Source: Mucisphaera calidilacus
GTDB taxonomy: Bacteria > Planctomycetota > Phycisphaerae > Phycisphaerales > Phycisphaeraceae
Assembly (NCBI RefSeq): GCF_007748075.1
Contig: NZ_CP036280.1
Location: 210,001-242,000, forward strand
DNA: 32,000 nt
Direction: 5' to 3'
In this document: positions 6,160-29,262 of the stretch, piece by piece
Numbering within the stretch: position 1 is the stretch's first letter
Layout: each line of letters opens with the position of its first letter
The notes under the pieces: model-generated
Seen by the model: only the letters and a program-made list of their open reading frames with translations
Told to the model about the DNA's origin: nothing
The model's database searches: none
Position numbers and translations under genes: made by a program

Positions 6160-7332
6160 TCAGTGCAGGAAGAAACGCACGCCCGACATCGCCATGGTCA
6201 TGCCGTGCTCGTCGGCGGCAGCCACGACGTCCTCGTCACGCTTGGACCCGCCGGCCTGAAGCACGGCCCGGACGCCGGTACGCGCCAGGCGGTCGATGTT
6301 GTCGCGGAACGGGAAGAAGGCGTCCGAGCTGCAGGCAAGGTGATCGAAACCGGCGAGGTAGTCGGCTCGCTCCGCCGCGCTGATCGGCTGTGGGTCAGCG
6401 GTCAGCCCCGCCGAGATCTGCTCGCGCTCGAAGGGGCCCAGCTCGTCCCAGCGGACATACTGATCGATGATGTTCACCTTCTCGGCACGCTTGAGCCCCG
6501 GCCTGAAGGGGAGTTCGAGCGTCCTGGGGTGCGTCTTGAGCAGCCACGCCTCCGCCTTGGTGCAGGCGAGCCGTGTGCAGGCGATGCGCGATTGCTGGCC
6601 GGCGCCGATGCCCACCGCCTGTCCCGCGTAGCCCAACGCTACGGAGTTCGACTGCGTGTGCTTGAGGGTGACCGTGGCGACGAGCAGCGTCTCGATCGCC
6701 TCGGGGGAGAAGGCCTTGTTCTTCGTCACGACGTTGCCGAGCAGCTCCGGGCCGATCGGCTGGTCGTTGCGCTTCTGGCTCAGCCGCATGCCGAACTCCA
6801 GCCGGTCCTCCATCTCAGGCGGCTCGTAGCCCGGGTCGATCTCGAGCATCAGGTAGTTGCCGCCTTTCTTGGCCCGGATGATCTCGAGCGCCTCCGGCTC
6901 GTAGCCCGGCGCGATGATGCCGTCGGATACCTCCGGCTTGAGCAGGCGCGCGAGCGACGCGTCCGCAGGCTGACTCAGCGCGACGAAATCGCCGAACGAC
7001 GCGGAGCGGTCGGAGCTGCGTGCCTTGGCGTAGGCCGAGGCGATCGGCGAGAGATTGGGCCCGTCATCGATCAGATGCCCGGCGCAGAAGACTTCGGAAA
7101 GCGGGCCCGCGACCGCCGCACCGGCGGGGCTGACGTGCTTGTAGGAGGCCGCGGCGGGCTTGCCGGTGGTCTGGGCCAGCTCGCGGACCAGCTGCCAGCC
7201 ACGCAGGGCATCAAGAATGTTGATGAAACTCGCGGCCCCATTGACCACGCGAAGCGGCGTATCCCCTTGTGGCATCTGGATTTGAGCGGGTTGTTGGTTG
7301 GGGTTGCACCCGTAACGCAGCGCGATGTCCAT
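6160..7332 (-). CDS. purH: phosphoribosylaminoimidazolecarboxamide (AICAR) formyltransferase, single-domain PurH-like protein without the IMP cyclohydrolase/MGS domain
   Basis: LRYGCNPNQQPA, SYKHVSPAG, GIGAGQQSRI, SSDAFFPFRDNI, AVLQAGGSKRDEDV and the terminal GVRFFLH all match the AICARFT half of PurH. The protein is 390 aa and starts directly at the AICARFT region. Confidence 0.8.
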   Translation of the reverse strand: MDIALRYGCNPNQQPAQIQMPQGDTPLRVVNGAASFINILDALRGWQLVRELAQTTGKPAAASYKHVSPAGAAVAGPLSEVFCAGHLIDDGPNLSPIASAYAKARSSDRSASFGDFVALSQPADASLARLLKPEVSDGIIAPGYEPEALEIIRAKKGGNYLMLEIDPGYEPPEMEDRLEFGMRLSQKRNDQPIGPELLGNVVTKNKAFSPEAIETLLVATVTLKHTQSNSVALGYAGQAVGIGAGQQSRIACTRLACTKAEAWLLKTHPRTLELPFRPGLKRAEKVNIIDQYVRWDELGPFEREQISAGLTADPQPISAAERADYLAGFDHLACSSDAFFPFRDNIDRLARTGVRAVLQAGGSKRDEDVVAAADEHGMTMAMSGVRFFLH

Positions 7333-7539: not shown

Positions 7540-10500
7540 GTGTCGCAAACCCATGCTCCATCGTCCGATAATACGGTTCGCTTCGAGTCGCTTGAGGATC
7601 GTGTGCTGCTCAGCGCGGTGACGGAAAACCCCACGGGGTTCACCGTATCGCTGGGTGAGGGTCAGTCGATCCTTCTGGACTTCGACGAGGACGGCCCGGT
7701 TGCGTACGACGTTCAGGCCGACCTGATGGAGGTCTTCGCCCAGAGCAGCGCCAGCACCTCGTCGCTGCCCGTGCCCGTGGGGACCCAGCCCGAGGGCGCA
7801 CTCTCCGGCAAGATCGTCTACGTCCACGCCGGCCACGGCTACACCTGGACCAACAACAGCTTCTGGACCACCCAGCGCGGTGAGGGCTTCGAGATCGTCG
7901 AAGACATGGGCAACATGGATCAGATGAACTTCCTCATCGATCAGCTCTGGAACGCCGGCGCGACCGTCGTCCCGCTGCGTCCGGCACAGCACCAGATCAA
8001 CGAGGTCGTGCTCGATAACGTCGACGCTGAGGTGACCTTCGTCGGCAGCTGGAACAACAGCTCCTCGTCGATCTACTACGGCGAGTCGGGCGAGACGCCT
8101 TACCGCTGGGCCTCAACCTCGGGCACCGAGACCGCCTACGCCCGATACACGCCCGACATCCCCGAGGCGGGTTACTACCCCGTCTACACCTTCGCCCGCC
8201 ACGGCAGCGACCGCGTCGAGCAGCTCTACAAGGTCCACCACACCGGCGGCATCACCGAGGTCACGGTCGATCACTCGAAGGTCGGCAGCGGCTGGGTCTA
8301 CCTCGGCAACTTCTACTTCGACGAGGGCACCGACGGCTACGTCGATATCTCGAACCGCAGCGACCAGTCCGGCGTCGTGATCGCCGACGCGATCCGCTTC
8401 GGCAACGGGATGGGCGACAGCCTGCGCAACGGCTCGCCCTCGGGCTACGCCCGCGAAGACGAGGCCGGTCTCTACTGGATGGAGGCACTCGTCCGCGAGT
8501 CCCAGGGCATCTCGACCAGCGAATACCGCTCGTCCTCGGATGACCGCAGCGCGACCGTCAGCGCCTCGCCCCGCTGGGCCGAGTACATGAACCGTGAGGC
8601 CGGCGGCTCCTTCTCCGACCGCGTCTTCCTCTCCTACCACTCCAACGCCGGCGGCGGCCGCGGCGCCGTCGGACTCCACAACACCAGCAGCGGCGGCAAC
8701 ACCCCCAACCAGTTCGAGTGGGCGGAGCTGACCGGCGCGCACCTCAACGACGACATGCAGGCGATCGGCTCCCCGCCGCTTGAGCACCTCTGGTCCAACC
8801 GCTCGACCAACACCTATCAGGCTTCGTTCAACTACGGCGAGATACACAATGCCTATATCGGCGGCGAGTTCGACGCCACCATCCTCGAAGTCGCCTTCCA
8901 CGACAGCCAGTTCGACTCCGAGCTGATGCGTGACCCGGTCATGCGTCAGTGGGCGGCGCGCGCCTCGGTGCACGCGATGATCGAGTACTTCGACAACCGT
9001 AACAACGTGGCGAGCACCGTCGAGGCACCCGAGGCCGTCACCGGCGTCTCGGCCATGACCAACGCCCAGGGCGACGTGACACTCAGCTGGGACAAGCCCG
9101 CGTTCGGCGGCGTCAACGGCGACGCCGCGACCGGCTACCTCATCCAGACGTCCTTCGACGGCTACGGCTTCGACGGCGGCACCTACGTCGCCGGCGGTAA
9201 CACCCTCACCCACACCTTCGACGACCTCGACGGCGCCAACGGCGTCCACTACTTCCGCGTCCTGGCCGTCAACAACGGCGGCGTCTCCCTCGACTCCGAA
9301 ACCGTCGCGGCCAACCCCGGGCAGGCCGGCGACCCCTCCATCCTCATCGTCAACGGCTTCGACCGCTTCGACCGGACCCTCAACCCGCAGATCACCTACA
9401 GCGTCGGCACCATCGACCGCGTCCGCCCGCAGTGGATGAACAGCTTCGACTACACCGTGCAGCACGCCGACGCCATCCACGCCTACGACCCCTCGATCGG
9501 CTTCAACTCGGTCCAGAACGAGGATGTCATCAACGGCACCGTCGACCTCAACCTGTACACCACGGTCGTCTGGATCCTCGGCGAGGAATCGACCGCCGAC
9601 GCGACCTTCGACGCCACCGAGCAGGCGCTCGTGAGCTCCTTCGTCGGCAGCGGCGGCAACCTCTTCGTCTCCGGCTCCGAGATCGCTTACGACCTCGACG
9701 GCGTCAACAACGGCCAGAGCTTCTTCAACAACACGCTGGGTGCGACCTACGTCAGCGACGACTCCGACTCGAACACCGCGGCGGGTGTCAGCGGATCGAT
9801 CTTCGCCGGCATCTCGCTGAACTTCGACGACGGCGACGTCGTCTACGACGTCGACTCGCCCGACGTCATCTCCGCCACCAACGGCTCACTCGCCGCCATG
9901 ACCTACGGCGGATCGAGCGGCGGCGGCGGACGACCGGGCGGCGGAGGCGGCGGCGTAGCCGCGATCCAGCTCGAGGCCTCAGGCGGCCAGGGCGGCGTGG
10001 TCATGCTCGCCTTCCCGTTTGAGTCCATCGTCAGCCAGGACGACCGCCACGACGTGATGGCCGCGGCGCTCGGCTTCCTCGGCGCCGACCCGATCGAGCG
10101 CCCCGACGCACCGACCGACCTCGACGTCGCCATCTACACCAACCAGGCGGTCGTGAGCTGGACCCAGCCCGACGACCCGACCGCGGTCGGCGTGCACGTC
10201 GAACGCGCGGTCGCCGACGGCCTCTTCGAACGCATCACCACCGAGCCCCTGACCGACCCGGTCTTCCTCGACACCGGCCTGCTCGAGGGCATCGCGGTGG
10301 CCTACCGCGTCGTCTCCGTCGACGCAGAGGGCGTCACGAGCCTGCCGCTCGAGGTGGTCGAGGGCACGCCCCCGACCGCCACCTCGGTCGTCGCCGACAT
10401 CGACACACCGCTCTACCAGCTCGACGGCACTTGGTCCTCCTTCGTCGGGCTGGGCTACGAGGGCAGCTTTGCGCACGCCGGAACCGTCGGTGCTCCGTCG

Positions 10501-11787
10501 ACCGCCACCTGGAACCTCGACCTGGAACAGGCCGGTCACTACGAGGTCTCGGTCTTTATCCCCGAAGCGCTGATGATGGTTCCGCTGGGCCATGGCTCCT
10601 ACACCCTGACGACCACCAGCGGCACTGCGGCCGCCAGCGTCGATCAGGCTCAGTCACCCACAGGCGGCTGGCTGTCACTCGGCAGCTTCGACCTCGCTGC
10701 CGGCGAGTTCGAGCTGATCCTCGACGCCGCCGCATCGACCGACGGCTCCTTCGTGGTGGCCGACGCCATCCGTGTGGCGACCGTCACCGTCGACCAATTC
10801 CAGGACCCCGCCGAGGTCGTCGAAGTCGTCGTTGGCTCCGAAACCTGGACCCAGGCCTTCCTCGATCAGATCGATACGGGACGCGGGCTCGGCTACGGCA
10901 TGCCCGGCGGCGCGGGCCAACTCGCCTCACTGCCCTGGTCAAGCCTCAACACGATCTCGCTCGTCTTCAGCGAGGCGGTCTACGTCACACAGGATGACTT
11001 CGACTTCACCTGGAACGACGGCGCTGCCGAAGAGGCCGTCGTCTTCGTCTACGACGCGGCCGCGCACACCGCAACGTGGGTCTTCGACAGCAACGCCTAC
11101 ACGCCCGCCGGCGTGGTCACGGTCCAGCAGGTCGGCACGGTGCTCGACCACCAGGGCGTCGAAGCCGATACCGACTGGGTCAACGGCGTCTCCGAGGCCT
11201 CGGGCAACGGCATCGCGGGCGGCATGATGAACTACCTCTTCAGCGTGGTCGCCGGCAGCGCGGATGGCGACACCATGATCGACGCCAACGACATCGACGC
11301 GGTGCTCCGTGCCACGCAGGGCAACGGCGCAACGGCCTTCACCGACCTCGACGGCTCCGGCACCACCGACGCCGACGACGCCAACCTGCTCGTGATCGAC
11401 ATCCTCGGCACGCAGTTCGGCGACGCGAATCTCGATCAGTCCGTCGACCTGCTCGACCTCTCCGCACTGGCATCGAGTTTCGATGCGACCGACGGCGACT
11501 GGGCCAGCGGCGACTTCAACGGCGACGGCAACGTCGACCTGCTCGACCTCTCGCTGCTCGCTTCGAACTTCGGCTACACGGCCCCGGTCCCCGCGCCGGC
11601 GCTGGCGCAGGCAACCGTGGCTGAGCCGCAAATCGCCTCGAAGACCCAGCAGACCCAGCAGGACCAGTCACGCGTCTGGTCGCAGTCGCGTCAGCACGCC
11701 CAGCAGCAGCCGCTGACAACACGCGCCGGTGACCTCGTGGTTGATGCCGAGGAGGACGAGGCCGTCTTCGGTCTCTGGGAAAGCTGA
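7540..11787 (+). CDS. large multidomain surface/secreted-type protein. It has a LEPR-XLL-like N-terminus, an amidase_3-like domain split by a golvesin-C/Xly-like carbohydrate-binding insertion, FN3-like modules, a second CBD-like module, and C-terminal dockerin/EF-hand-like repeats.
   Basis: GTG at 7540 is in frame with ORF 6163..11787 and is preceded by AGGAG at 7529-7533. Everything upstream is antisense to purH. Motifs seen:
- RFESLEDRVLLSA at residues 14-26.
- GKIVYVHAGHGY, FLSYHSNAGGGRG and ILEVAFHDS (MurNAc-L-Ala amidase-like).
- Two VxFxGxW...G.Y.V...GGW..LG.F...ADAIRF/V modules.
- GDANLDQSVDLLDLSALA and GDFNGDGNVDLLDLSLLASNFG repeats. Confidence 0.8.
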   Translation: MSQTHAPSSDNTVRFESLEDRVLLSAVTENPTGFTVSLGEGQSILLDFDEDGPVAYDVQADLMEVFAQSSASTSSLPVPVGTQPEGALSGKIVYVHAGHGYTWTNNSFWTTQRGEGFEIVEDMGNMDQMNFLIDQLWNAGATVVPLRPAQHQINEVVLDNVDAEVTFVGSWNNSSSSIYYGESGETPYRWASTSGTETAYARYTPDIPEAGYYPVYTFARHGSDRVEQLYKVHHTGGITEVTVDHSKVGSGWVYLGNFYFDEGTDGYVDISNRSDQSGVVIADAIRFGNGMGDSLRNGSPSGYAREDEAGLYWMEALVRESQGISTSEYRSSSDDRSATVSASPRWAEYMNREAGGSFSDRVFLSYHSNAGGGRGAVGLHNTSSGGNTPNQFEWAELTGAHLNDDMQAIGSPPLEHLWSNRSTNTYQASFNYGEIHNAYIGGEFDATILEVAFHDSQFDSELMRDPVMRQWAARASVHAMIEYFDNRNNVASTVEAPEAVTGVSAMTNAQGDVTLSWDKPAFGGVNGDAATGYLIQTSFDGYGFDGGTYVAGGNTLTHTFDDLDGANGVHYFRVLAVNNGGVSLDSETVAANPGQAGDPSILIVNGFDRFDRTLNPQITYSVGTIDRVRPQWMNSFDYTVQHADAIHAYDPSIGFNSVQNEDVINGTVDLNLYTTVVWILGEESTADATFDATEQALVSSFVGSGGNLFVSGSEIAYDLDGVNNGQSFFNNTLGATYVSDDSDSNTAAGVSGSIFAGISLNFDDGDVVYDVDSPDVISATNGSLAAMTYGGSSGGGGRPGGGGGGVAAIQLEASGGQGGVVMLAFPFESIVSQDDRHDVMAAALGFLGADPIERPDAPTDLDVAIYTNQAVVSWTQPDDPTAVGVHVERAVADGLFERITTEPLTDPVFLDTGLLEGIAVAYRVVSVDAEGVTSLPLEVVEGTPPTATSVVADIDTPLYQLDGTWSSFVGLGYEGSFAHAGTVGAPSTATWNLDLEQAGHYEVSVFIPEALMMVPLGHGSYTLTTTSGTAAASVDQAQSPTGGWLSLGSFDLAAGEFELILDAAASTDGSFVVADAIRVATVTVDQFQDPAEVVEVVVGSETWTQAFLDQIDTGRGLGYGMPGGAGQLASLPWSSLNTISLVFSEAVYVTQDDFDFTWNDGAAEEAVVFVYDAAAHTATWVFDSNAYTPAGVVTVQQVGTVLDHQGVEADTDWVNGVSEASGNGIAGGMMNYLFSVVAGSADGDTMIDANDIDAVLRATQGNGATAFTDLDGSGTTDADDANLLVIDILGTQFGDANLDQSVDLLDLSALASSFDATDGDWASGDFNGDGNVDLLDLSLLASNFGYTAPVPAPALAQATVAEPQIASKTQQTQQDQSRVWSQSRQHAQQQPLTTRAGDLVVDAEEDEAVFGLWES

Positions 11788-11859: not shown

Positions 11860-13755
11860 GTGGGATCGCTGCTGAGGTTGTGCATGTCATCCCATGTTCA
11901 TGGCATCGGAGAAGTAACGGCGACGCAGTCGGTCACCGAGGACCCCTTCGGCTACGACGGCCCGCCGGACCAGTTCCTCGCCCGCTTCCTGGCCTCCCAG
12001 CGTGCCGCCGGCCTGAGTCTCGGCGGAGCACTCCTGCGCCCCGAACGCGAGGGCGTCGTGGAAGTGCTCGCGCTCGACCCCTCCCCGACGTCGGGCGGCG
12101 GGAGCCGCCCCGCATGGCTCACCAGCGCCACCCAGGGCGTCGCCACCGTCATGGCCGAGGGCCAGGCACGCGTCCTGCCCTTTCAGGACACCGGCGGGAT
12201 GTACCTCACCGGACCGAGCGGTTACCTCGGCCTCCTGCCCCTGCGTGGCGAGGGCCCGGTACGAGGCGTCGCCGCCTACCTCCTCGACGAAACCACCCAG
12301 CACGGCGCCGAACTCGCCGTGCGCCGGCTCGAACTGACCTGCGCCTCACTCGGCCTCTACGAGCTCAAGCGGACCTTCGAACGCAAGCAGGCCGACCTCG
12401 AACTGATGGGCGGGGCGGTCTCGCTGCTCGCCTCCGTCTCCGAACACGACCGGTTCAAGGCCGCCGCCATGGCCGCCTGCAACGAACTGGCCCAGCGCAC
12501 CAAGGCGATGCGCGTGAGCTTCGGCGTCCTCCGCGGCCGCTACATGCGCGTGCTCGCCATGAGCCAGACCGAACAACTCAACCGCAAGATGCGCCTCATC
12601 CAGGACATCGAGAGCGCGATGGAGGAGTGCCTCGATCAGGACCTCGAGATCCTGCACCCCGCGCCCGACAACGCCGACTTTGTGAGCCGTGCCACCGCCG
12701 ACCTCGCCGAAAGACACGGCCCCTCACGCATCCTCACCATCCCCATGCGGCTCGATGGCGTGCCCGAAGCCGTGATGCTCATCGAGCTCCCCACCGATCA
12801 GGGACTCACCGCCCGCCAGGTCGAGGCGCTGCGGCTGACCTCCGACCTGCTCGCACCGGCACTCATCCGCCAGAGCCGGCAGGACCGCTGGTTCGGCGCG
12901 CGGTTCGCGGCCTTCTGCAAACGCCACGCCGGGGAGATCGTCGGCCCGAGACACACCTGGGCCAAACTCACCGCCATCGCGCTGCTGATCGTGCTGCTCG
13001 TCTCCGTGCTCTACCCGGCGCGCTACCGCGTCGAGGGCACCTTTGTCATCAAGGCCTCCGAACGCCAGATCGTCGCAGCGCCCTTCGGCGGGTATCTCGC
13101 CGAGGTGCACGTCGAACCGGGCGACAACGTCGTGGCCGGCCAGACCGTGCTGGCGACCCTCGACACCGCCGACCTCACGCTCGAACTCGCCTCCCTGCTG
13201 GCGGAGATCGAGAGCTACCGCAAGGACGAGGCCATGGCACGACGCGACGGCGACATCGCCGGCCAGCAGATCGCCCAGGCACGACGCGACGAGGCCCAGG
13301 CCCAGGCCGACCTCATCGCCTACCGCATCGAACAGGCCGTCATCCGGGCACGCGTCGACGGCGTCCTCGTCGAGGGCGACCTCAAGCGGCAGATCGGCGT
13401 CGCCCTCGAACTCGGCCAGCCGATGTTCGAGGTCGCACCCCTCGACACCCTCTACGCCGAACTGAGCGTCCCCGAGACACGCGTCACCGAGGTCGAAGTC
13501 GGCCAGACCGGACTGCTGGCGTCGGTCGCGCGCCCCGGCACCTACCTGCCCTTCGCCGTCGACCGCATCGACCCGGCCGCCGAGGTCGTCGAGGGCCAGA
13601 ACGTCTTCAAGGTACGCCTGAGTTTCGACGAGCAACCCGCCGAGCTCCAGCCCGGGATGCAGGGCGTCGGCAAGGTCGACGTCGGCCGCAGGCCCCTCAT
13701 GTACATCTGGACCCGTGACGCGATCCGCTGGCTGCGCATGCAGCTCTGGATCTGA
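11860..13755 (+). CDS. HlyD-family periplasmic adaptor (membrane fusion protein) with a cytoplasmic N-terminal domain of about 360 aa (possibly tandem GAF-like)
   Basis: A single TM segment (WAKLTAIALLIVLLVSVLY) is followed by HlyD hallmarks: VAAPFGGYLAEVHVEPGDNVVAGQTVLATLDT (lipoyl-like), a coiled-coil stretch, then IRARVDGVLVE and a beta-barrel tail. An alternative start is the ATG at 11884. The GAF assignment for the N-domain is a guess from its alpha/beta pattern only. Confidence 0.75.
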   Translation: MGSLLRLCMSSHVHGIGEVTATQSVTEDPFGYDGPPDQFLARFLASQRAAGLSLGGALLRPEREGVVEVLALDPSPTSGGGSRPAWLTSATQGVATVMAEGQARVLPFQDTGGMYLTGPSGYLGLLPLRGEGPVRGVAAYLLDETTQHGAELAVRRLELTCASLGLYELKRTFERKQADLELMGGAVSLLASVSEHDRFKAAAMAACNELAQRTKAMRVSFGVLRGRYMRVLAMSQTEQLNRKMRLIQDIESAMEECLDQDLEILHPAPDNADFVSRATADLAERHGPSRILTIPMRLDGVPEAVMLIELPTDQGLTARQVEALRLTSDLLAPALIRQSRQDRWFGARFAAFCKRHAGEIVGPRHTWAKLTAIALLIVLLVSVLYPARYRVEGTFVIKASERQIVAAPFGGYLAEVHVEPGDNVVAGQTVLATLDTADLTLELASLLAEIESYRKDEAMARRDGDIAGQQIAQARRDEAQAQADLIAYRIEQAVIRARVDGVLVEGDLKRQIGVALELGQPMFEVAPLDTLYAELSVPETRVTEVEVGQTGLLASVARPGTYLPFAVDRIDPAAEVVEGQNVFKVRLSFDEQPAELQPGMQGVGKVDVGRRPLMYIWTRDAIRWLRMQLWI

Positions 13756-13763
13756 GGTGAACG

Positions 13764-15965
13764 ATGTCGACGCGCCGTCCCCTCTTCAGCGAGTCGTGGT
13801 ACCGGGTGGCGGAGATGGCGCCCCGACTGCGCCCGCAGATCGACACCTACCGCCAGCACTACCGCGGACGGCTCTGGCACGTGCTCCGCGACCCCTCGAA
13901 CAACAAGTTCTTCAGGCTCGATGAGGCCTCCTACCGATTCGTCGCGATGCTCAACGGCCGGCGGACCATCCGCGAGGTCTGGGAAGCCTGCTGCGACCAG
14001 CTCCAGGACCAGGCGCTGACTCAGGGCGAAGCCATCCAGGTCATCGGCCAGCTCTACACCTCCAACCTGCTCGACGCCGACGTCTCCGCCGACACCGCCG
14101 GCATCTTCGACCGCTACAAGCAGCGACGCCAACGCGAGGTGTCGGGCTACATGATGAACCTGCTCTTCGCGCGGATCCCCATCTACGACCCCGACGCGTT
14201 CCTCGACAAGTGGGTGCACCTCACACGATGGGCCTTCGGTCCCGTCGGCCTCATCCTCTGGTGCCTGCTCGTCGGCGCGGGGCTGTTCGTGGCGATCGGA
14301 CGCTCGGACGCCCTGCTCAGCCAGGCATCCTCGGTGATCGCGCCGCGCAACCTCTTCTGGCTCTACATCGCGATCGTCGTCATCAAGCTCTGGCACGAGA
14401 TGGGACACGGCTTCGCCTGCAAGCACTTCGGGCAGCAGCGCCACGCCGGCGGCGAGGTCCACACCCTCGGCGTCATGCTGCTCGTGCTCGTCCCCGTGCC
14501 CTACGTCGACGCCTCCTCCTCGTGGGCGCTGCGCAACAAGTGGCACCGCTTCTGGGTCGGCGCCGCGGGCATGTACTTCGAACTGGCGGCGGCGGCGCTC
14601 GCCACCTTCGTCTGGGCCGCCACCAACGCGCAGACGTCCTTCTACGGCGTCCCGGTCCACGCCCTCGCCTACAACGTCATGTTCATCGCAGGCGTCAGCA
14701 CCATCCTCTTCAACGCCAACCCGCTCATCCGCTTCGACGGCTACTACATGCTCTCCGACGCGCTCGAGGTCCCCAACCTCATGCAGCGGTCGAAGGACTA
14801 CCTCTACTACCTCGTACGCAAGTACCTCTACGGCGTACGCCGGCCCATGAACCCCGCCCACGTGCACGGCGAAGCGCCCTGGCTCTTCAGCTACGCGATC
14901 CTCTCGAGCATCTACCGCGTCTTCCTCCTCACCTCGATCCTCCTGTTCGTCGCCGACCAGTTCTTCTTCCTCGGCATGATCTTCGCCATCTCCGGCCTCA
15001 TCGGCTGGGTGGGCACGCCCCTCTGGAAGTGGGTCAAGTACCTCGCCACCAACCCCGAACTCGCGCGCACACGCTCACGAGCCGTCATGGCCTCCGCGAC
15101 GCCGATCGTGCTCCTGCTCGTCCTGCTTGGCGTCGTGCCCGCGCCGGAACACGGACGGGCCGAGGGCGTGGTCGAGGCCGATCGCCGAGCGGTCGTCTTC
15201 GCCGGCGCCGACGGCGTGCTGGATACGATCGCCGAGCAGTCATCGACCGTCCCGCGAGGCGGCCTCCTGATGCGCGCGCACAACGCACAACTCGAGAGCC
15301 AGCAACGCGAGCTCGTGGCACGTCTCGAGCAGATCCGCGTGCAGCTCGCGCAGGCACGCACCGAGAGCACGGCCGAGGCCCAGGCACTGCTCGAGCAGCA
15401 GACGGCCCTGCGTCAACGGCTCGACCGGGTCAATCAGCAGATCGTCTCGCTCGAGGTCACCGCGCCGTTCGAGGGCCGCTGGGACGCCCAGCCCGAACTG
15501 GTGCCCGGCCTCTACCTCCGGCAGGGCGAAGCGATCGGCACCTTCCTCGACGACCGCGACCCGCGCGTGCGCATCATCGCCGACCAGTCACTCGGCCCGC
15601 GTCTCTGGGCCCGGTACGCCGAGGGCCTGCTGTCCGTCGAGTTCCGCGTCTCGGGCCTGCCCGAGACCACACTCAACGGCGCCATCACCCGCGTCGCCCC
15701 CGCCGGCCAGAGCCAGCTCCCCAGCCCCGCGTTATCCATGGGCGCCGGCGGCCTGATGCCCACCGACCCCGAAGACCCCAATGGACAACGCGCCGCAGAA
15801 CCCTTCTTCGAGGTCCGTATCACCCCCGAGATCGAAACGGAACACCACGGCTACCTGCGCCCCGGCCAACGCGTCGTCGCACGCTTCGCGCTCGGCTACC
15901 GACCGCTGCTCTGGCAGTGGTGGGACGCCCTCTCACGCCTGCTCCAGGAACGGTTCCAGGTCTGA
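13764..15965 (+). CDS. fusion protein: PqqD/RRE-like N-domain + M50 (site-2 protease) zinc metalloprotease membrane domain + C-terminal HlyD-like adaptor domain
   Basis: - HEMGH at nt 14394-14408, inside a TM helix.
- NANPLIRFDG (NxxPxxxxDG, the second S2P motif) at 14712-14741.
- N-terminal FFRLDEASYRFVAMLNGRRTIREVWEAC...GEAIQVIGQLYTSNLL resembles the PqqD family.
- From about residue 463: RAEGVVEA..., a coiled coil, then LEVTAPFEGRW, which is HlyD-like.
- The gene starts 8 nt after the upstream stop. Confidence 0.8.
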   Translation: MSTRRPLFSESWYRVAEMAPRLRPQIDTYRQHYRGRLWHVLRDPSNNKFFRLDEASYRFVAMLNGRRTIREVWEACCDQLQDQALTQGEAIQVIGQLYTSNLLDADVSADTAGIFDRYKQRRQREVSGYMMNLLFARIPIYDPDAFLDKWVHLTRWAFGPVGLILWCLLVGAGLFVAIGRSDALLSQASSVIAPRNLFWLYIAIVVIKLWHEMGHGFACKHFGQQRHAGGEVHTLGVMLLVLVPVPYVDASSSWALRNKWHRFWVGAAGMYFELAAAALATFVWAATNAQTSFYGVPVHALAYNVMFIAGVSTILFNANPLIRFDGYYMLSDALEVPNLMQRSKDYLYYLVRKYLYGVRRPMNPAHVHGEAPWLFSYAILSSIYRVFLLTSILLFVADQFFFLGMIFAISGLIGWVGTPLWKWVKYLATNPELARTRSRAVMASATPIVLLLVLLGVVPAPEHGRAEGVVEADRRAVVFAGADGVLDTIAEQSSTVPRGGLLMRAHNAQLESQQRELVARLEQIRVQLAQARTESTAEAQALLEQQTALRQRLDRVNQQIVSLEVTAPFEGRWDAQPELVPGLYLRQGEAIGTFLDDRDPRVRIIADQSLGPRLWARYAEGLLSVEFRVSGLPETTLNGAITRVAPAGQSQLPSPALSMGAGGLMPTDPEDPNGQRAAEPFFEVRITPEIETEHHGYLRPGQRVVARFALGYRPLLWQWWDALSRLLQERFQV

Positions 15966-17965
15966 TGGTCGGCTCGACCCCCGATTCCGACCTCGCCGCA
16001 CCGCCCAGCCAGCTCTGGCGCAACCTCTCGCGACCGGCCAAACCGCCCAAGCTCCCGCGCGGCCTCGACGGCTTCTGGAACCTCGCCACCGGACGCATCG
16101 TCCCGCTCATCCCGCGCACCCGTCGCTACCTCCAGCGCGCCCAGCGGATCCACGAGGCCGCCGAGGCGCACCGCACCGCCGCCGTCCCCGCACTCGACCA
16201 GCGGGTCGAGGACCTGCGAGCCACCTTCCGCAAGGGGCGCGCCGAACGCGAGCACGTCGACGAGGCCATGGCCCTGATCGTGGAGCTGGCCGACCGCACG
16301 CTCGGCATGCGGCCCTACGTGGTCCAGGTCGCCGCCGGCCTGTCGATGTTCGACGGCTGCCTCGCCGAGGTGGCCACCGGCGAGGGCAAGACGCTCATCG
16401 CGACCCTCCCCGCGATCCTCGCCGGCTGGCGCGGCCGCGGCTGCCACGTCGTCACCGTCAACGACTACCTCGCCCAACGCGACGCACAGACCATGGGGCC
16501 GCTCTACCGCAAGGCAGGCCTGCGCGTCGCCTCCGTCCACCAGGAACTCAAAGACGACGAACGCCGACAGGCCTACCTCGCCGACGTCACCTACCTCACC
16601 AACAAGGAAGTCGCCGCCGACTACCTGCGCGACCGGCTCAAGCAGGGCAAGGCACGCGGGCTCGCCTCGACACTCGTCGACGCCATCACCACCGGACGCG
16701 GGTCCTATGGCCGGGGGATGGTCCAGCGCGGGCTCGCCTGCGCCATCGTCGACGAGGCCGACTCCGTGCTCATCGACGAGTCGGTCACACCCCTGATCAT
16801 CTCGACCGAGGCCGACAACGAAGACCAGGCCCAGGCGTTCAAACAGGCGGTCGCCATGGCCGACCAGCTCGAACGCGACCGCGACTACAAGGTCGTCGCC
16901 CGCTACAAGGAAATCGAGCTGACGCGCGCCGGACGCGAACGCTCACGCGAGATCGCCGAGTCCCTCGACCTCTCAGGCGTCTGGTCGACGCCACGCGGCC
17001 GCGAAGAACTCGTGCACCAGGCCCTCTCCGCTAAAGAGCTCTTCCTGCCGGGCCAGCAATACGTCATCCAGGAGGGCAAGGTGGTGATCGTCGACGAGTC
17101 GACCGGCCGCCTCATGCCCGACCGTTCCTGGCGGCACGGCCTCCACCAGGCCGTCGAGGCCAAGGAGGGGCTGGACGTCAGCGGCGCCAAGGAGACACTC
17201 GCCCGCATCAGCTTCCAGCGCTTCTTCCGCATGTACGAGAACCTCTCGGGTATGACCGGCACGGCATGGGAAGAACGCTACGAGTTCTGGGAGGTCTACA
17301 GCCTCGCAACCGTCCGATTCCCGACGCACCGACCCCGGATCCGCGAGGAGATGCCCGACCGCGTCTTCGCCTCCGCCGAGGCACGCTGGCTCGCGGTCGT
17401 CGAGGAAATACGCCAGCTCCACGCCACCGGGCGCCCGGTCCTCATCGGCACACGCTCGGTCGAGGCCAGCGAGAAACTCAGCTCGCTCCTCGCCGCGCAA
17501 GGGATCCACCACGAGGTGCTCAACGCCGTACGCCACGCCGAGGAAGCCGCCATCGTCGCCCGGGCCGGCGAACGAGGCCGCGTCACCGTCGCCACCAACA
17601 TGGCCGGCCGAGGCACCGACATCAAGCTCTCCCGAGGCGTCGCGGAACTCGGCGGGCTCGCGGTCATCGCGACCGAACGCCACGAGTCAGGCCGCGTCGA
17701 TCGGCAGCTCTTCGGACGCGCCGGCCGCCAGGGCGACCCCGGCTCAGCCGTCTGCTTCGTGAGCCTCGAAGACGAACTGATCAAACGCTACACACGCGCC
17801 GTCGACCGCGCGATCCTCTCGAACTACGCCGGCAACCCCGTCGCCGCCAGCTACCTCTTCAACCAGGCCCAGGGCCGAGCCCAGCGCATGGCACGGGCCA
17901 ACCGCAAGGGCGTCCTGGAACACGACCACTGGCTGGAGAAACACCTCGGCTTCGCCCCGGAATAG
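15965..17965 (+). CDS. SecA-like DEAD-motor ATPase (NBD1-PPXD-NBD2), truncated after the start of the helical scaffold
   Basis: The ATG at 15965 overlaps the upstream TGA (TGATG). Motifs: LAEVATGEGKTL (Walker A, nt 16373-16396), VVTVNDYLAQRD, IVDEADSVLIDESVTPLIIS (DEAD box at 16751-16762), FQRFFRMYENLSGMTGTA, TNMAGRGTDIKL and TERHESGRVDRQLFGRAGRQGDPGS. The protein is 666 aa and ends shortly after RKGVLEHDHW. This is the last part of the 14210..17965 ORF in the track. Confidence 0.85.
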   Translation: MVGSTPDSDLAAPPSQLWRNLSRPAKPPKLPRGLDGFWNLATGRIVPLIPRTRRYLQRAQRIHEAAEAHRTAAVPALDQRVEDLRATFRKGRAEREHVDEAMALIVELADRTLGMRPYVVQVAAGLSMFDGCLAEVATGEGKTLIATLPAILAGWRGRGCHVVTVNDYLAQRDAQTMGPLYRKAGLRVASVHQELKDDERRQAYLADVTYLTNKEVAADYLRDRLKQGKARGLASTLVDAITTGRGSYGRGMVQRGLACAIVDEADSVLIDESVTPLIISTEADNEDQAQAFKQAVAMADQLERDRDYKVVARYKEIELTRAGRERSREIAESLDLSGVWSTPRGREELVHQALSAKELFLPGQQYVIQEGKVVIVDESTGRLMPDRSWRHGLHQAVEAKEGLDVSGAKETLARISFQRFFRMYENLSGMTGTAWEERYEFWEVYSLATVRFPTHRPRIREEMPDRVFASAEARWLAVVEEIRQLHATGRPVLIGTRSVEASEKLSSLLAAQGIHHEVLNAVRHAEEAAIVARAGERGRVTVATNMAGRGTDIKLSRGVAELGGLAVIATERHESGRVDRQLFGRAGRQGDPGSAVCFVSLEDELIKRYTRAVDRAILSNYAGNPVAASYLFNQAQGRAQRMARANRKGVLEHDHWLEKHLGFAPE

Positions 17966-17980: not shown

Positions 17981-18814
17981 TTATTCAGCCGGCTCAAGCG
18001 ACGCCAGGCGAACCACAAATCCCGAGGGCAGACCGCCGTCGGGATTGTCGATCTCAAAGACACAGCGGAACGTCTGCGAAGCCGGGTCGATGATCGCGTC
18101 CACGATCGTGAGCCTGCCCCGCAGCGACTCGGACGCGGGCGCCGACCCGATCAGCCCGTACATCGCGTTGAGCTTCATGTCGCCGTACACCTCCGCCGGC
18201 AGGTGAATCTCGGCACGGATCGGGCTGATGCTCACGATCGCCAGCAGCGAGTCCTCGGTCTGGACCGTCTCGCCCGACTCCACCGTCCGCCGCAGCACCA
18301 CGCCGTCGAACGGCGCGTCCAGCCGGTAACGATCCAGACGCTCCAGCTCCAACTCGTAACGCTTCTCCGCGATCAGCTTGTTGTCCTTCGCCAGCTGCAG
18401 GTCAGCGGTCGCCTGATCACGCTGCACGCGCGTCCGCCGAACCTCCCACTCGCTGGCCGCGTCCTTCTCGAAGCTCGTGGTCACCCGGTCAAGCAGGATC
18501 TGCGCCTCCTCGAGGGCGTACTGCGCTCGCAGGATCTGGGCGTCGCTCTCCGCCTGCAGCCTCGACGACTCGGTCGACAGCCGCTGAATCGCGTCGTCCA
18601 TCTGCAGCAGCGGTTGACCCTCCTTGACATACTCGCCCTCCACCACCAGCACCTGCTCGACGATCCCGTCCACCGGCGCCGAAAGCTGAACCTGCTGGGC
18701 CGGACGCGTCACGCCCTCGTAACGCGACAGGTTGATCCGGCTCTGACCGAGCACGGGAAGCGAGGTCACAAAACCGACGATCAGGCCGGCGACGATGGCA
18801 TAGTGGTACTTCAT
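17981..18814 (-). CDS. HlyD/efflux-type periplasmic adaptor subunit, with no adjacent pump
   Basis: ATG at 18814 (MKYHYAIVAGLIVGFVTSLPVLGQ signal/anchor). VQLSAPVDGIVEQVLVVEGEYVKEGQPLLQMDD, a coiled coil, then LDAPFDGVVLRR. The upstream 196 codons of ORF 17981..19402 overlap ruvA antisense and I rejected them. Confidence 0.75.
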   Translation of the reverse strand: MKYHYAIVAGLIVGFVTSLPVLGQSRINLSRYEGVTRPAQQVQLSAPVDGIVEQVLVVEGEYVKEGQPLLQMDDAIQRLSTESSRLQAESDAQILRAQYALEEAQILLDRVTTSFEKDAASEWEVRRTRVQRDQATADLQLAKDNKLIAEKRYELELERLDRYRLDAPFDGVVLRRTVESGETVQTEDSLLAIVSISPIRAEIHLPAEVYGDMKLNAMYGLIGSAPASESLRGRLTIVDAIIDPASQTFRCVFEIDNPDGGLPSGFVVRLASLEPAE

Positions 18815-25683: not shown

Positions 25684-25911
25684 TCACGGATCCGCCTCGT
25701 CCAGCACCTGCGTGAACACCGTCTGACCGCTCCGGAGCATCGCGCTCAGATAAGGCCGACACATCCCGCAGCAGGTCGATGCTCCCGTTCGCAGCGCCAG
25801 CTCATCGAGATTCAACCCGTCGCGCTCGGCCTGCGCAAGCAGGTCCGTAAACGCCTGACGCGTGCAGACACAGCGATCAATACAAATGGGGGGGCAGGAA
25901 TCAGGCATCAT
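25684..25911 (-). CDS. BFD-like [2Fe-2S]-binding domain protein
   Basis: 75 aa with the Cys pattern C-x-C ... TGASTCCGMCRPYL, typical of bacterioferritin-associated-ferredoxin-like domains. The start overlaps the stop of the upstream gene (TAATG). Confidence 0.7.
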   Translation of the reverse strand: MMPDSCPPICIDRCVCTRQAFTDLLAQAERDGLNLDELALRTGASTCCGMCRPYLSAMLRSGQTVFTQVLDEADP

Positions 25912-26681
25912 TACTTCAGGTCAAACAGCGAATTGTCCTCAGGCCCAAACCAGCCCAGACCGAGCTGCCGGTTCTGTTCCTCGGTGAAACCGTAGGCGCT
26001 GCCACGCGTGAAGGTCATGGACACACGCGTCATGTGGCCATCCAGCCAACCCGCGTTCGTACCACCCTGATGCCGGAAGTGAATCGACGGGCTTGCTTCC
26101 CATCCCGCCGCGTGAAAGGGGGGTTCCGCGAACGAATACTCCATCAACACCTCGCCATCCGTCGAGAAGGCCGTGTCGGTGAAATGCACGGTCCGCGTCG
26201 GATCCGCCGCCATGTCGATCCGGTTGGACGACTCCGAATAGAGCTCCTTGGGATCATCCGTGCCCAGGTAGTTGCGGTTGTAGCCATACCCGCCGCAGCT
26301 CGCCTCGAAGCCGGCGATCTCCGGCTCAAAGCTCGGGCACCGCTTGACGTCTACCGACTGAAAATAAGGAAAGAGCGGAGCACGAGCCGAGTCGAAAGGC
26401 TCGTCGATCGCGTCACGTTGACCGTGCCAGCGGTGCAGATTCTCCATGAACCGCGCCGCAGCAGGCACCAGGTGCTCGTCGTGGTCCGAGGCATAAGCGT
26501 GGTTCGCCAGCATCAGCTGCCGAAGGTTGCTCCCGCACACGACGCCCCGCGCCGACGACCGCGCCGCAGCAAGACTCGGCAGCACCAACGCCACCAGCAG
26601 GCCGATGATCGAGATGACCACCAGCAGCTCGATGAGCGTAAACGCCCTCTGCCTCACGCTGACTCGGATCGTGCTCCGCAT
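25911..26681 (-). CDS. prepilin-type N-terminal cleavage/methylation domain protein, DUF1559 / H-X9-DG family
   Basis: [26 protein letters not shown] (type IV pilin-like leader and methylation motif), and a C-terminal [12 protein letters not shown] that gives an exact H-X9-DG spacing. Confidence 0.9.
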
Positions 26682-26688
26682 CCGTGGA

Positions 26689-27423
26689 TTACCGGCTCCT
26701 GCGTGTCACCGCAGCCAGGCCCACCAGCATCAGGCCGGCCAGCGACGAGGGCTCCGGAACGAGTTGAAGGTTGTCCAACGCGATGTACGTCGGCGTGTTG
26801 ATGCCGAACTCTCCCACGTCGGTCGAGCTGAACGACAACCCGATCGAACGCGCATCGCCCACCACCGTCAGGTCGATCGCCTGCCACGTGTCGAGGATGA
26901 ACAGGCCGTCGACAGCCGTGTAGGAACCCAGCGTGATCGCCGCGGTCGATCCGGTCAACGCACCCGTCCCGTTCGCGCCGCTGTAACCGTTGAGCGTGAC
27001 CGTGAACAGGTCGGTGCCCTGGGGATCGCTGCCGAAGGCCGTCGCGACGAGGTTGCCGTCACGCATCGCCAAAGCCGCATAGGTCGTGTTCGTGATCGAC
27101 GCCGACACCGCCGTCTGATCCGCCGGCAGGTTGATGTAGCCCCAGCCGCCGCTGGCAATCGCGTAGTTGCCGTCGCCCTCGACGTCCACACCGGTGTACG
27201 CCGCGTACTGGTTCAGGAACCCAGGCGTCGTCGTGTCGTTCACGTCCGAATACGTCCAGCCGAAATACTGCCCGCCGGTGAACGCAACACGCTTCGACAC
27301 GAAACCGGCTCCGCTCACGTAGTCCGGACCGGGCGTGATCAGTTCATCGAAATCGACAAGCACGTCGCCGCAGGCAACGCCGGCCATCAGGCCCAGAGCA
27401 GTCAGGGTGGTCAGGTGATTCAT
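26689..27423 (-). CDS. secreted PEP-CTERM protein (possibly DUF4465-like)
   Basis: GGAGAAAG RBS upstream of the ATG at 27423, signal peptide [19 protein letters not shown], and C-terminal [23 protein letters not shown]. The DUF4465 resemblance is weak recollection only. Confidence 0.75.
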
Positions 27424-27496
27424 GGTCTTTCTTTCTCCGATTCAATAAGGTTGAAAGCCGACCGCACACCGCGTGCGGCCGGCATCAAAACAACAC

Positions 27497-28738
27497 TCAG
27501 CGACGCGACGCGTCGACAACCAGCCCAAGCGACAGCAGCAACGCCACCGCCGGCTCGGGCACCGAAGATGCGCCGAAGCCGCTCGCCAGTAGCGAAAGAT
27601 CCAGCAGGTCGACCGTGCCGTCCGCGTTGAAATCGCCGTCGGCCCAGCCAGCCGAATCACCAAAACTCGATGCCAGACTCGACAGGTCCAGCAAGTCCAC
27701 GTGGTGGTCGAGGTTCGCGTCGCCGAACGACGTCCCGATCAGATCCGTCACCAGACGCTCCAGGTCCGACGCGTCGGTCTGGCGGTCGCCGGTGACATCG
27801 AAAGCCACGCCGCCGAATCCCGCGACCAACGTGTCGATATCCGCAGCCGTCACCACCCCGTCGCCGTCCACGTCACCCGCCACCGCGTCCGCCGCCGTCA
27901 GCAACGCAATACCGCCGACGCTGTAGCTCAGGTCAAAACCGCCCGAACCCACCGTCGGGTGAGCATCAAGAATCGGATTGCCCAGCGAATCGATGAAGTG
28001 CCCGTTGCCCGGGATATCCACCAGCCGCACGAAACGCACGCCCGCCAGGTCAAGCCCCGGCGAACCCGCGAGCTGAGCCAGATCAAAAGGCGTGCCCCAG
28101 TTGGTCGCGTGCTTGCCCGCGAGGTTGTACACGTTCGTCTCGTCCAGACCCGCGTACTGTGAGATGCCCTGCAGGTCCCCGGGCGTGTTGGTCGAGACCG
28201 CATCGAACCGCACGAAGTGCTCGCCGTCCGACGAGACCTCGACAAACGCCAACTCCGCGAAAAAACCGCCCGCGAACCCCGAGAAACCGTTCTCAAACAC
28301 CGCGAAATCAAAACCCGGCCCGTCAACCAGCGGGTGCGCCAGCTCGATGACCGCGCTGCCCGGATCGTCGTACCCGGTGAAGCCATACTCGTCATCCGTG
28401 TCTGTCACGTCCCCCGAGAAGGGCTGCGTCGCTCCGGAGAAGGGGGGTATCTGGCCCGTCGCCGGCGGATTCGCCGGGTCGTACAACTCGCCCAGCGAAC
28501 CGTAACCCGTCACCGGATCGCGGTAGCTGACACCCACGCCCGGAGCCGGGCTGTAGTCGATCAACACCCCGTTCCACGCCGTGATCCCGGGATCGCTCTT
28601 GGCCACAGGCGGGTCGAACGCGTTGCCCGGATCGTTCGAATTCGCCGAGTAAGGGCCCGCCAGGGCCGTGGCAGAAATAAGACCGAGGCCAACCGCCGCA
28701 GCGACGACCTCCCGGCTGCACCCGAGGTGCTCAAACAT
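27497..28738 (-). CDS. secreted protein with dockerin/EF-hand-like repeats and a PEP-CTERM anchor
   Basis: The ATG at 28738 is preceded by GAGAGAGG. Signal-like VVAAAVGLGLISATALAG. GDVDGDGVVTAADID, GDANLDHHVDLLDLSSLA and GDFNADGTVDLLDLSLLASGFG repeats. C-terminal VPEPAVALLLSLGLVVDASRR. The upstream 88 codons of ORF 27497..29002 are Arg/Ser-rich and I rejected them. Confidence 0.75.
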   Translation of the reverse strand: MFEHLGCSREVVAAAVGLGLISATALAGPYSANSNDPGNAFDPPVAKSDPGITAWNGVLIDYSPAPGVGVSYRDPVTGYGSLGELYDPANPPATGQIPPFSGATQPFSGDVTDTDDEYGFTGYDDPGSAVIELAHPLVDGPGFDFAVFENGFSGFAGGFFAELAFVEVSSDGEHFVRFDAVSTNTPGDLQGISQYAGLDETNVYNLAGKHATNWGTPFDLAQLAGSPGLDLAGVRFVRLVDIPGNGHFIDSLGNPILDAHPTVGSGGFDLSYSVGGIALLTAADAVAGDVDGDGVVTAADIDTLVAGFGGVAFDVTGDRQTDASDLERLVTDLIGTSFGDANLDHHVDLLDLSSLASSFGDSAGWADGDFNADGTVDLLDLSLLASGFGASSVPEPAVALLLSLGLVVDASRR

Positions 28739-29262
28739 GGGAAACCTCTCTCGGCCATACGCGGACCGACTCCCGAGGGATGATGGGGTCCGCGCGTGGT
28801 CCGGGAACGGCTGCGACGTCGGGAGAGCGAAGACAGACGATAAGCCCGGGCCGTCCAAAAACGCGAGGACATAAGCCCAAGCCTCGGGCAGGTCTTCCGG
28901 CTCAGGGCACCTGCTCCATCCGCCTTCCCGCGACGACCCGTTGCAGGCCGAAGCAGTGGCTCTGGATGAAGCCCGCCTCCCGATCGATCGTCGAGAGGCC
29001 ACCCATTACGGCGGCGCGTCCGCGGAGGAATGGCCGGAGTCTCGCTCCGACGCACCTCGCTTCCCTTTTCAGAACCCGTGTCGATCCGACATCAGGTCGC
29101 ACCTGAGGCAGAACCCAAAATACGCCCCCTCCCTTGCCCAGTCAATACCGGATGCACAACTCCCCTGATTTTCGCGCTCCGGACGCCCCCGGCACTTGCA
29201 ACAACCGCCCGTCGTGATACGCTGTTTGGCCCGACCGACGGGTCCGCCCCGACGTCAGCTAC

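Follow-up and report, generated by a model that had tools for sequence, protein, structure and literature searches.

Background

The closest described relatives of the system reported here come from work on small modified peptides and from work on giant surface proteins. In the daptide paper, an N-terminal RiPP recognition element (RRE; RiPP, ribosomally synthesised and post-translationally modified peptide) fused to an intramembrane site-2 protease (S2P), MpaP, served as the handle for daptide discovery, and MpaP was proposed to act as an RRE-dependent leader peptidase; the daptide leader, ELExMEAP, cannot do without L(-7) and M(-4). According to a review of RiPP proteases, epipeptides and pearlins are likewise matured by M50 enzymes. 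As to the giant proteins, a preprint on Chlorochromatium states that those carrying the LEPR-XLL motif 'lack known signals' and that their expression goes together with that of a secA acquired by horizontal transfer; SapC and TolC lie on the flanks of the LEPRxLL giants of Chlorobium chlorochromatii, according to a 2026 preprint. A 2023 preprint describes, inside giants of the Omnitrophota, SecA DEAD and PPXD domains that come without scaffold or wing, and suggests a role for them in the export of the proteins that carry them. We analysed a stretch of 32,000 nucleotides of Mucisphaera calidilacus (contig NZ_CP036280.1, positions 210,001 to 242,000 of the forward strand; assembly GCF_007748075.1), hereafter the window, in which a single 733-amino-acid protein joins a PqqD/RRE-like domain, an S2P and a membrane fusion protein (MFP) domain.

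These three domains, taken together with a truncated SecA-like protein and further MFPs encoded beside LEPR-XLL proteins, make the fusion protein a probable tag-reading and tag-cutting part of an export machine. Our reading, to which we assign a probability of roughly 55%, is that it recognises and removes the LEPR-XLL leader as part of a conduit resembling a type 1 secretion system (T1SS) in which a SecA-like motor, in place of an ABC transporter, supplies the power. Fusions of an RRE to an S2P have been described before, in the daptides; what sets the present protein apart is the MFP tail and the gene context. In the literature searched, which is incomplete, neither the RRE-S2P-MFP fusion nor its gene module is described, and the nearest publications are the daptide RRE-S2P work, the RiPP protease review and the preprints on giant proteins.

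Three domains in one polypeptide

The fusion gene and the parts of its product are as follows (AF2, AlphaFold2; TM, transmembrane; pLDDT, predicted local distance difference test).

13764..15965, plus strand: RRE-S2P-MFP fusion protein, 733 aa (open reading frame; AF2 pLDDT 85.5; at least 3,868 clusters of relatives)
13842..14072, plus strand: PqqD/RRE-like winged-helix domain, residues 27-103, predicted cytoplasmic (Pfam, orthologues, PDB profile, Foldseek, AF2)
14241..15137, plus strand: S2P/M50 membrane domain, residues 160-458, seven predicted TM helices and a hydrophobic beta-hairpin at 235-248 (NF041824, Pfam, AF2, hydropathy)
14394..14408, plus strand: HEMGH zinc-binding/catalytic motif, residues 211-215 (sequence; H211, E212 and H215 invariant)
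14712..14741, plus strand: NANPLIRFDG motif, residues 317-326 (sequence; N317, P320 and D325 invariant)
15138..15962, plus strand: predicted periplasmic MFP (HlyD/MexA-like) domain, residues 459-733, alpha-hairpin 508-561 (Foldseek, weak Pfam match, AF2)

The product is 100% identical to a hypothetical protein of M. calidilacus (Phycisphaerae, Planctomycetota) and belongs to a large, unstudied family that spans many diderm phyla. A phmmer search over 1.84 billion representatives, clustered at 50% identity, gave at least 3,868 related clusters at E<=1e-30, and since nearly all of the 150 top clusters are 710-740 aa long, the fusion architecture is fixed. Relatives of the gene were also sought in one genome per GTDB species; of at least 597 candidate stretches the best 80 loci were examined, and nearly every relative in them is of full length. 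The loci are spread over Planctomycetota, Verrucomicrobiota, Lentisphaerae, Nitrospira, Desulfobacterota, Alpha-, Beta- and Gammaproteobacteria, and Rokubacteria. When the full-length fusion protein is searched by itself, all its Pfam matches fall below the gathering thresholds, so the domain assignments rest on family-level and structural evidence, the latter including a full-length AF2 model.

For the N-terminal domain, Pfam PqqD (PF05402, threshold 23.4 bits) matches residues 39-102 of the full-length protein with E 2e-3 and 18.7 bits, and the isolated residues 1-135 with E 2e-4 and 22.0 bits. Thirty of 33 N-domains of diverse orthologues match PqqD at E<=0.01 (best 1.2e-8), and they match no other family. 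A profile of the N-domain run against all PDB sequences retrieves PqqD structures only, namely 3g2b (0.086) and 5sxy (0.33). Two independent AF2 models place strands at residues 27-33, 36-43 and 48-52, followed by helices at 54-61, 69-83 and 87-99, and three strands followed by three helices is the winged-helix topology of RREs. Among the Foldseek matches are two lasso RREs with leader bound, TbiB1 (5v1u/5v1v) and B1 (6jx3), and PqqD 5sxy, with target-normalised TM-scores of 0.62-0.69, probabilities of about 1 and E values of 0.015-0.05; the RRE-containing enzymes ThcOx, LynD, TglHI, CteB and MibB are returned as well, amid generic winged helices. Across phyla the RRE is conserved on a par with the catalytic core (0.61-0.64), as against 0.36-0.47 for the MFP part, which fits a conserved ligand.

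The membrane domain is best matched by the NCBIfam model of the daptide intramembrane metalloprotease, NF041824 (E 4.7e-44, 151 bits, residues 44-409), which falls short of its equivalog cutoff of 300 bits. Weaker matches are those to the YydH/LiaK model (E 1e-4) and to Pfam Peptidase_M50 (residues 201-286, E 2e-4, 21.2 bits, threshold 27.2). H211, E212, H215, N317, P320 and D325 are invariant in 70 orthologues of the fusion protein. AF2 and hydropathy give TM helices at residues 160-179, 194-226, 259-286, 295-317, 370-399, 401-429 and 437-457; HEMGH sits in helix 194-226 and NANPLIRFDG at the end of helix 295-317. The protein thus has the site-2 protease motif set of an HExxH in a TM helix and a downstream Asp ligand, D325 being the presumed third zinc ligand, and proteolysis is accordingly a predicted activity.

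The C-terminal part carries the MFP fold, with alpha-hairpin, lipoyl and beta-barrel elements after a membrane anchor, as modelled by AF2, where the two arms of the hairpin are residues 508-534 and 536-561. Foldseek aligns it over about 270-300 columns with MexA, MacA, AcrA and TMexC (E 5e-12 to 1e-9). The Pfam match to HlyD_D23 is weak (residues 465-646, E 0.026, 14.3 bits against a cutoff of 30). The loops on the side of the N-domain carry more positive charge, and HEMGH lies at the inner end of a helix that runs from outside to inside. Together with the seven TM helices, these features fit a predicted N-in/C-out topology in which the RRE and the S2P active site face the cytoplasm and the MFP part lies in the periplasm.

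A preliminary description of this DNA, made by reading its sequence, had proposed that PqqD/RRE-like, S2P M50 and HlyD domains occur in one polypeptide, and profile and fold evidence bears out all three. All the strings that it cited can be read there, FFRLDEASYRFVAMLNGRRTIREVWEACCDQLQDQALTQGEAIQVIGQLYTSNLL spanning residues 49-103, HEMGH residues 211-215 and NANPLIRFDG residues 317-326. It had made the PqqD/RRE identity of the N-domain a test in advance, and the profile and fold matches obtained are specific to PqqD and RREs. The periplasmic membrane-fusion region of about 270 aa that it proposed is the one with fold matches to MexA, MacA, AcrA and TMexC, and the N-domain and the protease site, whose sidedness it had likewise made a test, fall on compatible sides of the membrane, both being predicted to be cytoplasmic while the MFP part is periplasmic.

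A conserved gene module

Three neighbouring genes accompany the fusion gene.

11860..13755, plus strand: GAF-MFP, 631 aa, start codon uncertain, cytoplasmic GAF-like N-region and one TM helix (Pfam, synteny)
15965..17965, plus strand: truncated SecA-like ATPase, 666 aa (Pfam, alignment, synteny)
17981..18814, minus strand: small MFP, 277 aa, anchored in the membrane at its N-terminus (Pfam, TM prediction, synteny)

GAF-MFP matches HlyD_3 (E 4e-16) and HlyD_D23 (E 5e-15), with a weak GAF match (0.006) and a TM segment at residues 366-384. The SecA-like protein matches SecA_DEAD (E 3e-96), SecA_PP_bind (E 7e-26) and P-loop_SecA (E 2e-60), and it retains NBD1, PPXD and NBD2 and runs into the first part of the scaffold helix. 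Its alignment with Bacillus subtilis SecA covers residues 14-605 only, so that wing domain, two-helix finger and C-terminal tail are all missing. The small MFP matches HlyD_D23 (E 3e-19), HlyD_3 (E 4e-19) and Biotin_lipoyl_2 (E 5e-10), and its TM segment spans residues 5-23. The fusion-gene stop codon and the ATG of the SecA-like gene share one base, the last of the stop codon (15962..15967), and the stop codon of GAF-MFP lies 8 bp before the fusion ATG, which suggests translational coupling of these three genes. The gene of the small MFP is convergent with the SecA-like gene.

Synteny was followed by tblastn of the window neighbours against the related loci and by all-against-all clustering of the open reading frames (ORFs) in their flanks. 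A survey of what such fusion proteins neighbour, as the preliminary description had envisaged, gave GAF-MFP, the truncated SecA-like ATPase and the small MFP as the recurrent partners. The same four-gene set is found in almost every one of the best 80 loci with enough flank: GAF-MFP adjoins the fusion gene in nearly all 80, the SecA-like gene is downstream of it in most, and the small MFP is kept in most. These four are the sole window genes shared with the related loci. A DUF3467 gene, whose product is about 100-130 aa long, is a frequent fifth member; it stands just upstream of GAF-MFP in about 21 loci, across phyla, and was not found in the window. A DUF3467 profile run against PDB sequences gave nothing but a spurious match to a de novo designed protein. 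TolC-like genes occur in five of the related clusters and SapC-like genes in four. Examples of these genes, from the flank ORFs of related loci (each given by locus label and coordinates), are listed here.

L017:1455-1838, L040:7641-7982, L083:4851-5132, L085:12732-13052, L093:16784-17089, L095:17681-17977: DUF3467 genes
L085:19981-21408, L095:23075-24487, L084:2492-4411, L040:15476-16414: TolC-family genes
L092:22245-23066, L063:12282-13055, L094:22262-22960, L045:3539-4234: SapC-family genes
L085:17210-19126, L092:23059-25083, L083:9127-11112, L093:22177-24138: misnamed SecA-like genes

The last of these lines concerns several plasmids on which the name 'prepilin peptidase' or 'DEAD/DEAH box helicase' has been given to a SecA-like protein that is 46-48% identical to that of the window. 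No ABC, RND or MFS transporter is conserved in the module or in the related loci, and no RiPP tailoring enzyme or conserved short precursor ORF was found beside the module in the 80 loci, nor is any regulator conserved there.

LEPR-XLL proteins as candidate substrates

The gene that ends 75 bp ahead of the module encodes a large protein with a LEPR-XLL-like motif close to its N-terminus (HMM, hidden Markov model).

7540..11787, plus strand: candidate substrate, a large protein of the secreted type, about 1,415 aa, GTG start at 7540 preceded by AGGAG (start-codon analysis, Pfam)
7579..7617, plus strand: LEPR-XLL-like motif, residues 14-26, RFESLEDRVLLSA (NF012209, motif HMM)

Pfam identifies two Golvesin_C domains together with fn3 and dockerin in this protein, and no Sec-type hydrophobic signal was seen in it. 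Its N-terminus starts MSQTHAPSSDNTVRFESLEDRVLLSAV and carries the LEPR-XLL-like FESLEDRVLLSA, which scores 25.6 bits on a motif HMM built for the purpose. The conserved leader of such proteins is [F/L]-E-x-[L/M]-E-P-R-x-L-L-S/A, and RFESLEDRVLLSAV and HFEALEPRLLLSAD are examples of LEPR-XLL peptides.

In alphaproteobacterial plasmids the module follows giant genes on the same strand, 12-39 kb long, with products of up to about 12,900 aa.

Pontibrevibacter: giant upstream gene of about 31.8 kb, annotated LEPR-XLL
Methylosinus: giant upstream gene of 26.5 kb
Alisedimentitalea: giant upstream gene of 24.4 kb
Pseudosulfitobacter: giant upstream gene of 38.8 kb, annotated LEPR-XLL
Mesorhizobium ciceri: giant upstream gene of 31.6 kb
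Thalassospira: giant upstream gene of 12.1 kb, annotated LEPR-XLL

All six giants on annotated records have LEPR-XLL, four by direct reading of the N-terminus and two by NCBI annotation, one of which also scores 19.4 bits on the motif HMM. The N-termini read are LMLDPMEPRVLLSADP in Pontibrevibacter, IIFDTLEPRVLLNADV in Methylosinus and HFEALEPRLLLSADF in M. ciceri, and the leader QLEPRLLLAADF in Alisedimentitalea, which lies just upstream of a mis-annotated start. The annotated start of this last gene (locus L090, around 425-470) removes the leader LEPRLLLAAD. In Ensifer an ORF of more than 6,000 aa runs off the upstream edge of the locus, and in many other loci same-strand ORFs of at least 1,000 aa do the same.

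A plain regular expression for the motif gave 16 matches in 2.5 million six-frame residues, about the rate expected by chance, and was dropped; the motif HMM was therefore used instead, with reversed sequences as control. It gave 11 matches at 19-30 bits, while everything else scored at most 5.9 and the reversed sequences at most 4.4. All 11 lie near the start of ORFs that adjoin the module, nine of them within 75-500 bp of a module gene. The curated LEPR-XLL model, NF012209 (NCBIfam cutoff 17 bits), is passed by seven of ten neighbour N-termini, and neighbours in loci other than the window score 17-36 bits.

A more distant S2P-MFP relative, with about 25% identity, is found on Citrobacter freundii plasmid pB18196_2 (L084, 278947-294584). 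On enterobacterial conjugative plasmids its gene comes after those of a giant Ig-like protein, of TolC and of two or three MFPs; the relative occurs in 17 Escherichia and 8 Citrobacter plasmid records, and also at L091:565-804. The cluster of this type has no adjoining SecA-like gene and is followed by an IS5-like element, and the N-terminus of its giant has a variant motif, RFALESRQLFDGAA, that NF012209 misses.

Just upstream of the candidate substrate gene, the window holds on the minus strand, divergent from it, an AICARFT/IMPCHase (PurH-like) ORF at 6160..7332 that matches positions 78-311 of the profile only; its N-terminal part is apparently missing or its start mis-set. A run of secreted-type proteins lies farther off, also on the minus strand (25911..29002), and has three members. 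The one at 25911..26681 bears an N-terminal methylation motif of prepilin type, that at 26689..27423 is a DUF4465 protein, and that at 27497..29002, of 500 aa, contains a dockerin; in none of them was a LEPR-like motif found.

Proposed mechanism and rival explanations

The fusion protein is probably the subunit that recognises the signal, processes it and acts as adaptor in a trans-envelope exporter dedicated to large LEPR-XLL surface proteins. The order of events that we infer starts from the observed architecture, catalytic-residue conservation, predicted topology, module synteny and LEPR-XLL adjacency. The cytoplasmic RRE would bind the short leader of the substrate, which in the window would be that of the 1,415-aa Golvesin/fn3/dockerin protein. 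The truncated SecA-like ATPase, with its PPXD retained, would grip the unfolded chain and provide the energy, and the S2P site near the cytoplasmic face of the membrane would cut off the leader. The MFP domain of the fusion protein, GAF-MFP and the small MFP may then form the periplasmic conduit, which in proteobacteria would be joined to a channel of the TolC family. The preliminary description had imagined a protein that binds a leader, cleaves it and hands the product to a periplasmic conduit. That logic gains a candidate class of substrates, the LEPR-XLL proteins that stand beside the module here and in many genomes, yet its idea of recognition, maturation and export in one chain is not sustained, for the module to which the fusion protein contributes one subunit comprises four to five genes; two more MFPs and a truncated SecA-like ATPase belong to it, and often DUF3467, TolC or SapC as well.

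Several observations weigh against this proposal. The module has no known protein-conducting channel of the inner membrane. To our knowledge, the S2P domain is not a known pore. No TolC-like gene is present among the window ORFs scanned, no window gene outside the module is conserved with related loci, and some clusters, those of Thalassospira and of the distant Citrobacter variant, do without the SecA-like gene. The window motif lies just under the curated cutoff of NF012209 (16.3 bits against 17; E 0.0055), and the N-terminus of the candidate substrate in the window lacks the basic stretch common in other leaders. A recognisable LEPR ORF is within the flank in only about 12% of the genome loci, which is a lower bound, since the flanks are often short or end within large ORFs. 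Adjacency could also reflect co-regulation in place of a relation between substrate and machine.

Somewhat unlikely, in our view, is that the module does export its neighbours while the leader is read by the SecA-like PPXD, by the GAF region or by DUF3467, and the RRE-S2P part processes or regulates a component of the module, for instance by releasing or activating a partner or by clearing a stalled substrate. In its favour, PPXD, known to bind signals and preproteins, is retained in the SecA-like protein, no role has been assigned to DUF3467 or to the GAF region, and synteny, which speaks for a link between machine and substrate, is silent on which subunit reads the signal. But binding short linear leader motifs is what RREs are specialised for, the nearest characterised homologue of the fusion protein is the RRE-dependent leader peptidase MpaP, whose leader motif resembles LEPR-XLL, and the conservation of the RRE across phyla equals that of the catalytic core, matching a motif that is itself conserved. 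Moreover, clusters without the SecA-like gene or DUF3467 still have RRE-S2P-MFP beside LEPR-XLL proteins. It is improbable that the protein instead serves a RiPP pathway, cleaving the leaders of small modified peptides and exporting them in the manner of MpaP or EpeP/YydH, with an MFP tail for the diderm envelope and with large neighbours that are there by coincidence. RRE domains are indeed typical of RiPP pathways, EpeP is thought both to cleave and to export its peptide, and the best family match is that to the daptide metalloprotease (E 4.7e-44, with YydH/LiaK weaker at 1e-4). Yet 151 bits is far under the equivalog cutoff of 300, the partners conserved in the 80 loci are just MFPs, the SecA-like protein and DUF3467, with no tailoring enzymes or conserved short precursors among them, a SecA-type motor with PPXD indicates transport of polypeptides and not of small peptides, and the regularity of LEPR-XLL adjacency exceeds chance.

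We see little likelihood in a regulatory site-2 protease like RseP or SpoIVFB, engaged in regulated intramembrane proteolysis of, for example, an anti-sigma factor or a membrane sensor, with GAF-MFP sensing a ligand and the MFPs as mere scaffolds across the envelope. Such a role would agree with the S2P motifs and the membrane-re-entrant beta-hairpin, which signalling S2Ps share, and with the weak GAF match of the partner, GAF being a common sensory domain. However, neither sigma or anti-sigma factors nor other transcription factors are conserved nearby, the PDZ and CBS domains typical of signalling S2Ps are absent, and a SecA-like ATPase, three MFPs and an occasional TolC indicate transport. 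Very improbable, finally, is an ordinary efflux-pump adaptor that has a decayed protease domain as its membrane anchor; the MFP fold and the names that NCBI gives to plasmid homologues ('HlyD family efflux transporter periplasmic adaptor subunit') are what would suggest it. The module contains no RND, ABC or MFS transporter for such an adaptor to serve, and the catalytic residues are invariant in 70 orthologues, so the protease domain is not decayed.

Significance

If the module is the exporter of these giants, it supplies the missing link between the LEPR-XLL signal and its machinery. Beyond that, we entertain, tentatively and with less than even confidence, an undescribed secretion pathway of diderms for very large proteins, in which a LEPR-XLL signal would be read by an RRE and removed by an S2P, and in which a SecA-derived motor would drive passage through a conduit of three MFPs. 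Among the clients of such a pathway would be the largest bacterial proteins known, with the Chlorochromatium giants (20,000-36,000 aa) as an example, and it would explain how LEPR-XLL giants that 'lack known signals' leave the cell. The RRE, so far a hallmark of small-peptide natural-product pathways, would then serve as a secretion-signal receptor, and a SecA-derived motor would operate with conduits of the MFP/TolC type. The part played by giant bacterial surface proteins (4,000-36,000 aa) in symbiosis, predation and adhesion is gaining recognition, and thousands of proteins with misleading names ('PqqD family peptide modification chaperone', 'efflux adaptor', 'DEAD/DEAH box helicase', 'prepilin peptidase') could be renamed.

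Comparison with known systems

The C-terminal 275 residues of the fusion protein have the same fold as MexA, AcrA, MacA and EmrA (alpha-hairpin, lipoyl and beta-barrel elements). Whereas these adaptors are stand-alone lipoproteins or single-TM proteins that serve RND, ABC or MFS pumps, the adaptor part described here is joined to a seven-TM protease, with no pump present. EpeP/YydH, of the M50 family, is likewise a membrane protease thought to cleave and export a peptide, and is weakly homologous to the fusion protein (E 1e-4), but it belongs to a small-peptide system of Bacillus and has neither an RRE nor an MFP domain nor a SecA-like partner.

The SecA-like ATPase recalls SecA2 and the SecA domains of the Omnitrophota in being a second, specialised SecA-type motor probably tied to the export of particular very large proteins, and the Omnitrophota domains, too, come without scaffold and wing domains. 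It differs from them in that it is a separate protein of 666 aa whose gene is apparently translationally coupled to the fusion gene, with no accessory SecY or Asp proteins.

As in a T1SS (HlyBD-TolC) and in a peptidase-containing ABC transporter (PCAT; C39-MFP-TolC), a component of the inner membrane, here the putative reader of the signal, is combined with HlyD-type MFPs and, in some clusters, a TolC-family channel. The inner-membrane component of PCATs also cleaves the leader, and, as the module would be, T1SSs include dedicated, operon-linked systems for very large repetitive surface proteins. The module has a truncated SecA and no ABC transporter, however, and three distinct MFP-domain proteins where a T1SS has one; its protease is an S2P metalloprotease, unlike the C39 cysteine peptidase of PCATs, and its candidate signal is N-terminal, whereas the RTX-type signal is C-terminal. 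Without an ABC transporter and with a candidate N-terminal signal, the module falls outside the definition of a T1SS.

The closest likeness in architecture and homology is to MpaP/DapP of the daptide systems, in which an N-terminal RRE also precedes an HExxH S2P core, with direct homology over residues 44-409 (E 4.7e-44). The fusion protein reaches half the NF041824 cutoff (151 against 300 bits), and MpaP has no MFP domain and belongs to RiPP clusters of monoderm Actinomycetota and Bacillota with short precursors and tailoring enzymes; genes of the daptide cluster, that is, short precursors ending in Thr and enzymes of the MpaB, MpaC, MpaD and MpaM types, are not conserved in the window or in the 80 loci. 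The leaders resemble each other all the same, ELExMEAP of MpaP and F-E-x-L-E-P-R sharing a hydrophobic-E-x-hydrophobic-E pattern. The leader of Pontibrevibacter, LDPMEPR, comes close to the MpaA leader inferred from the numbering of the alanine scan (E-8, L-7, D-6, P-5, M-4, E-3, x, P-1). This similarity of leader sequences hints that the RRE-S2P proteins of the daptide and LEPR-XLL systems recognise related motifs of the form hydrophobic-E-x-hydrophobic-E.

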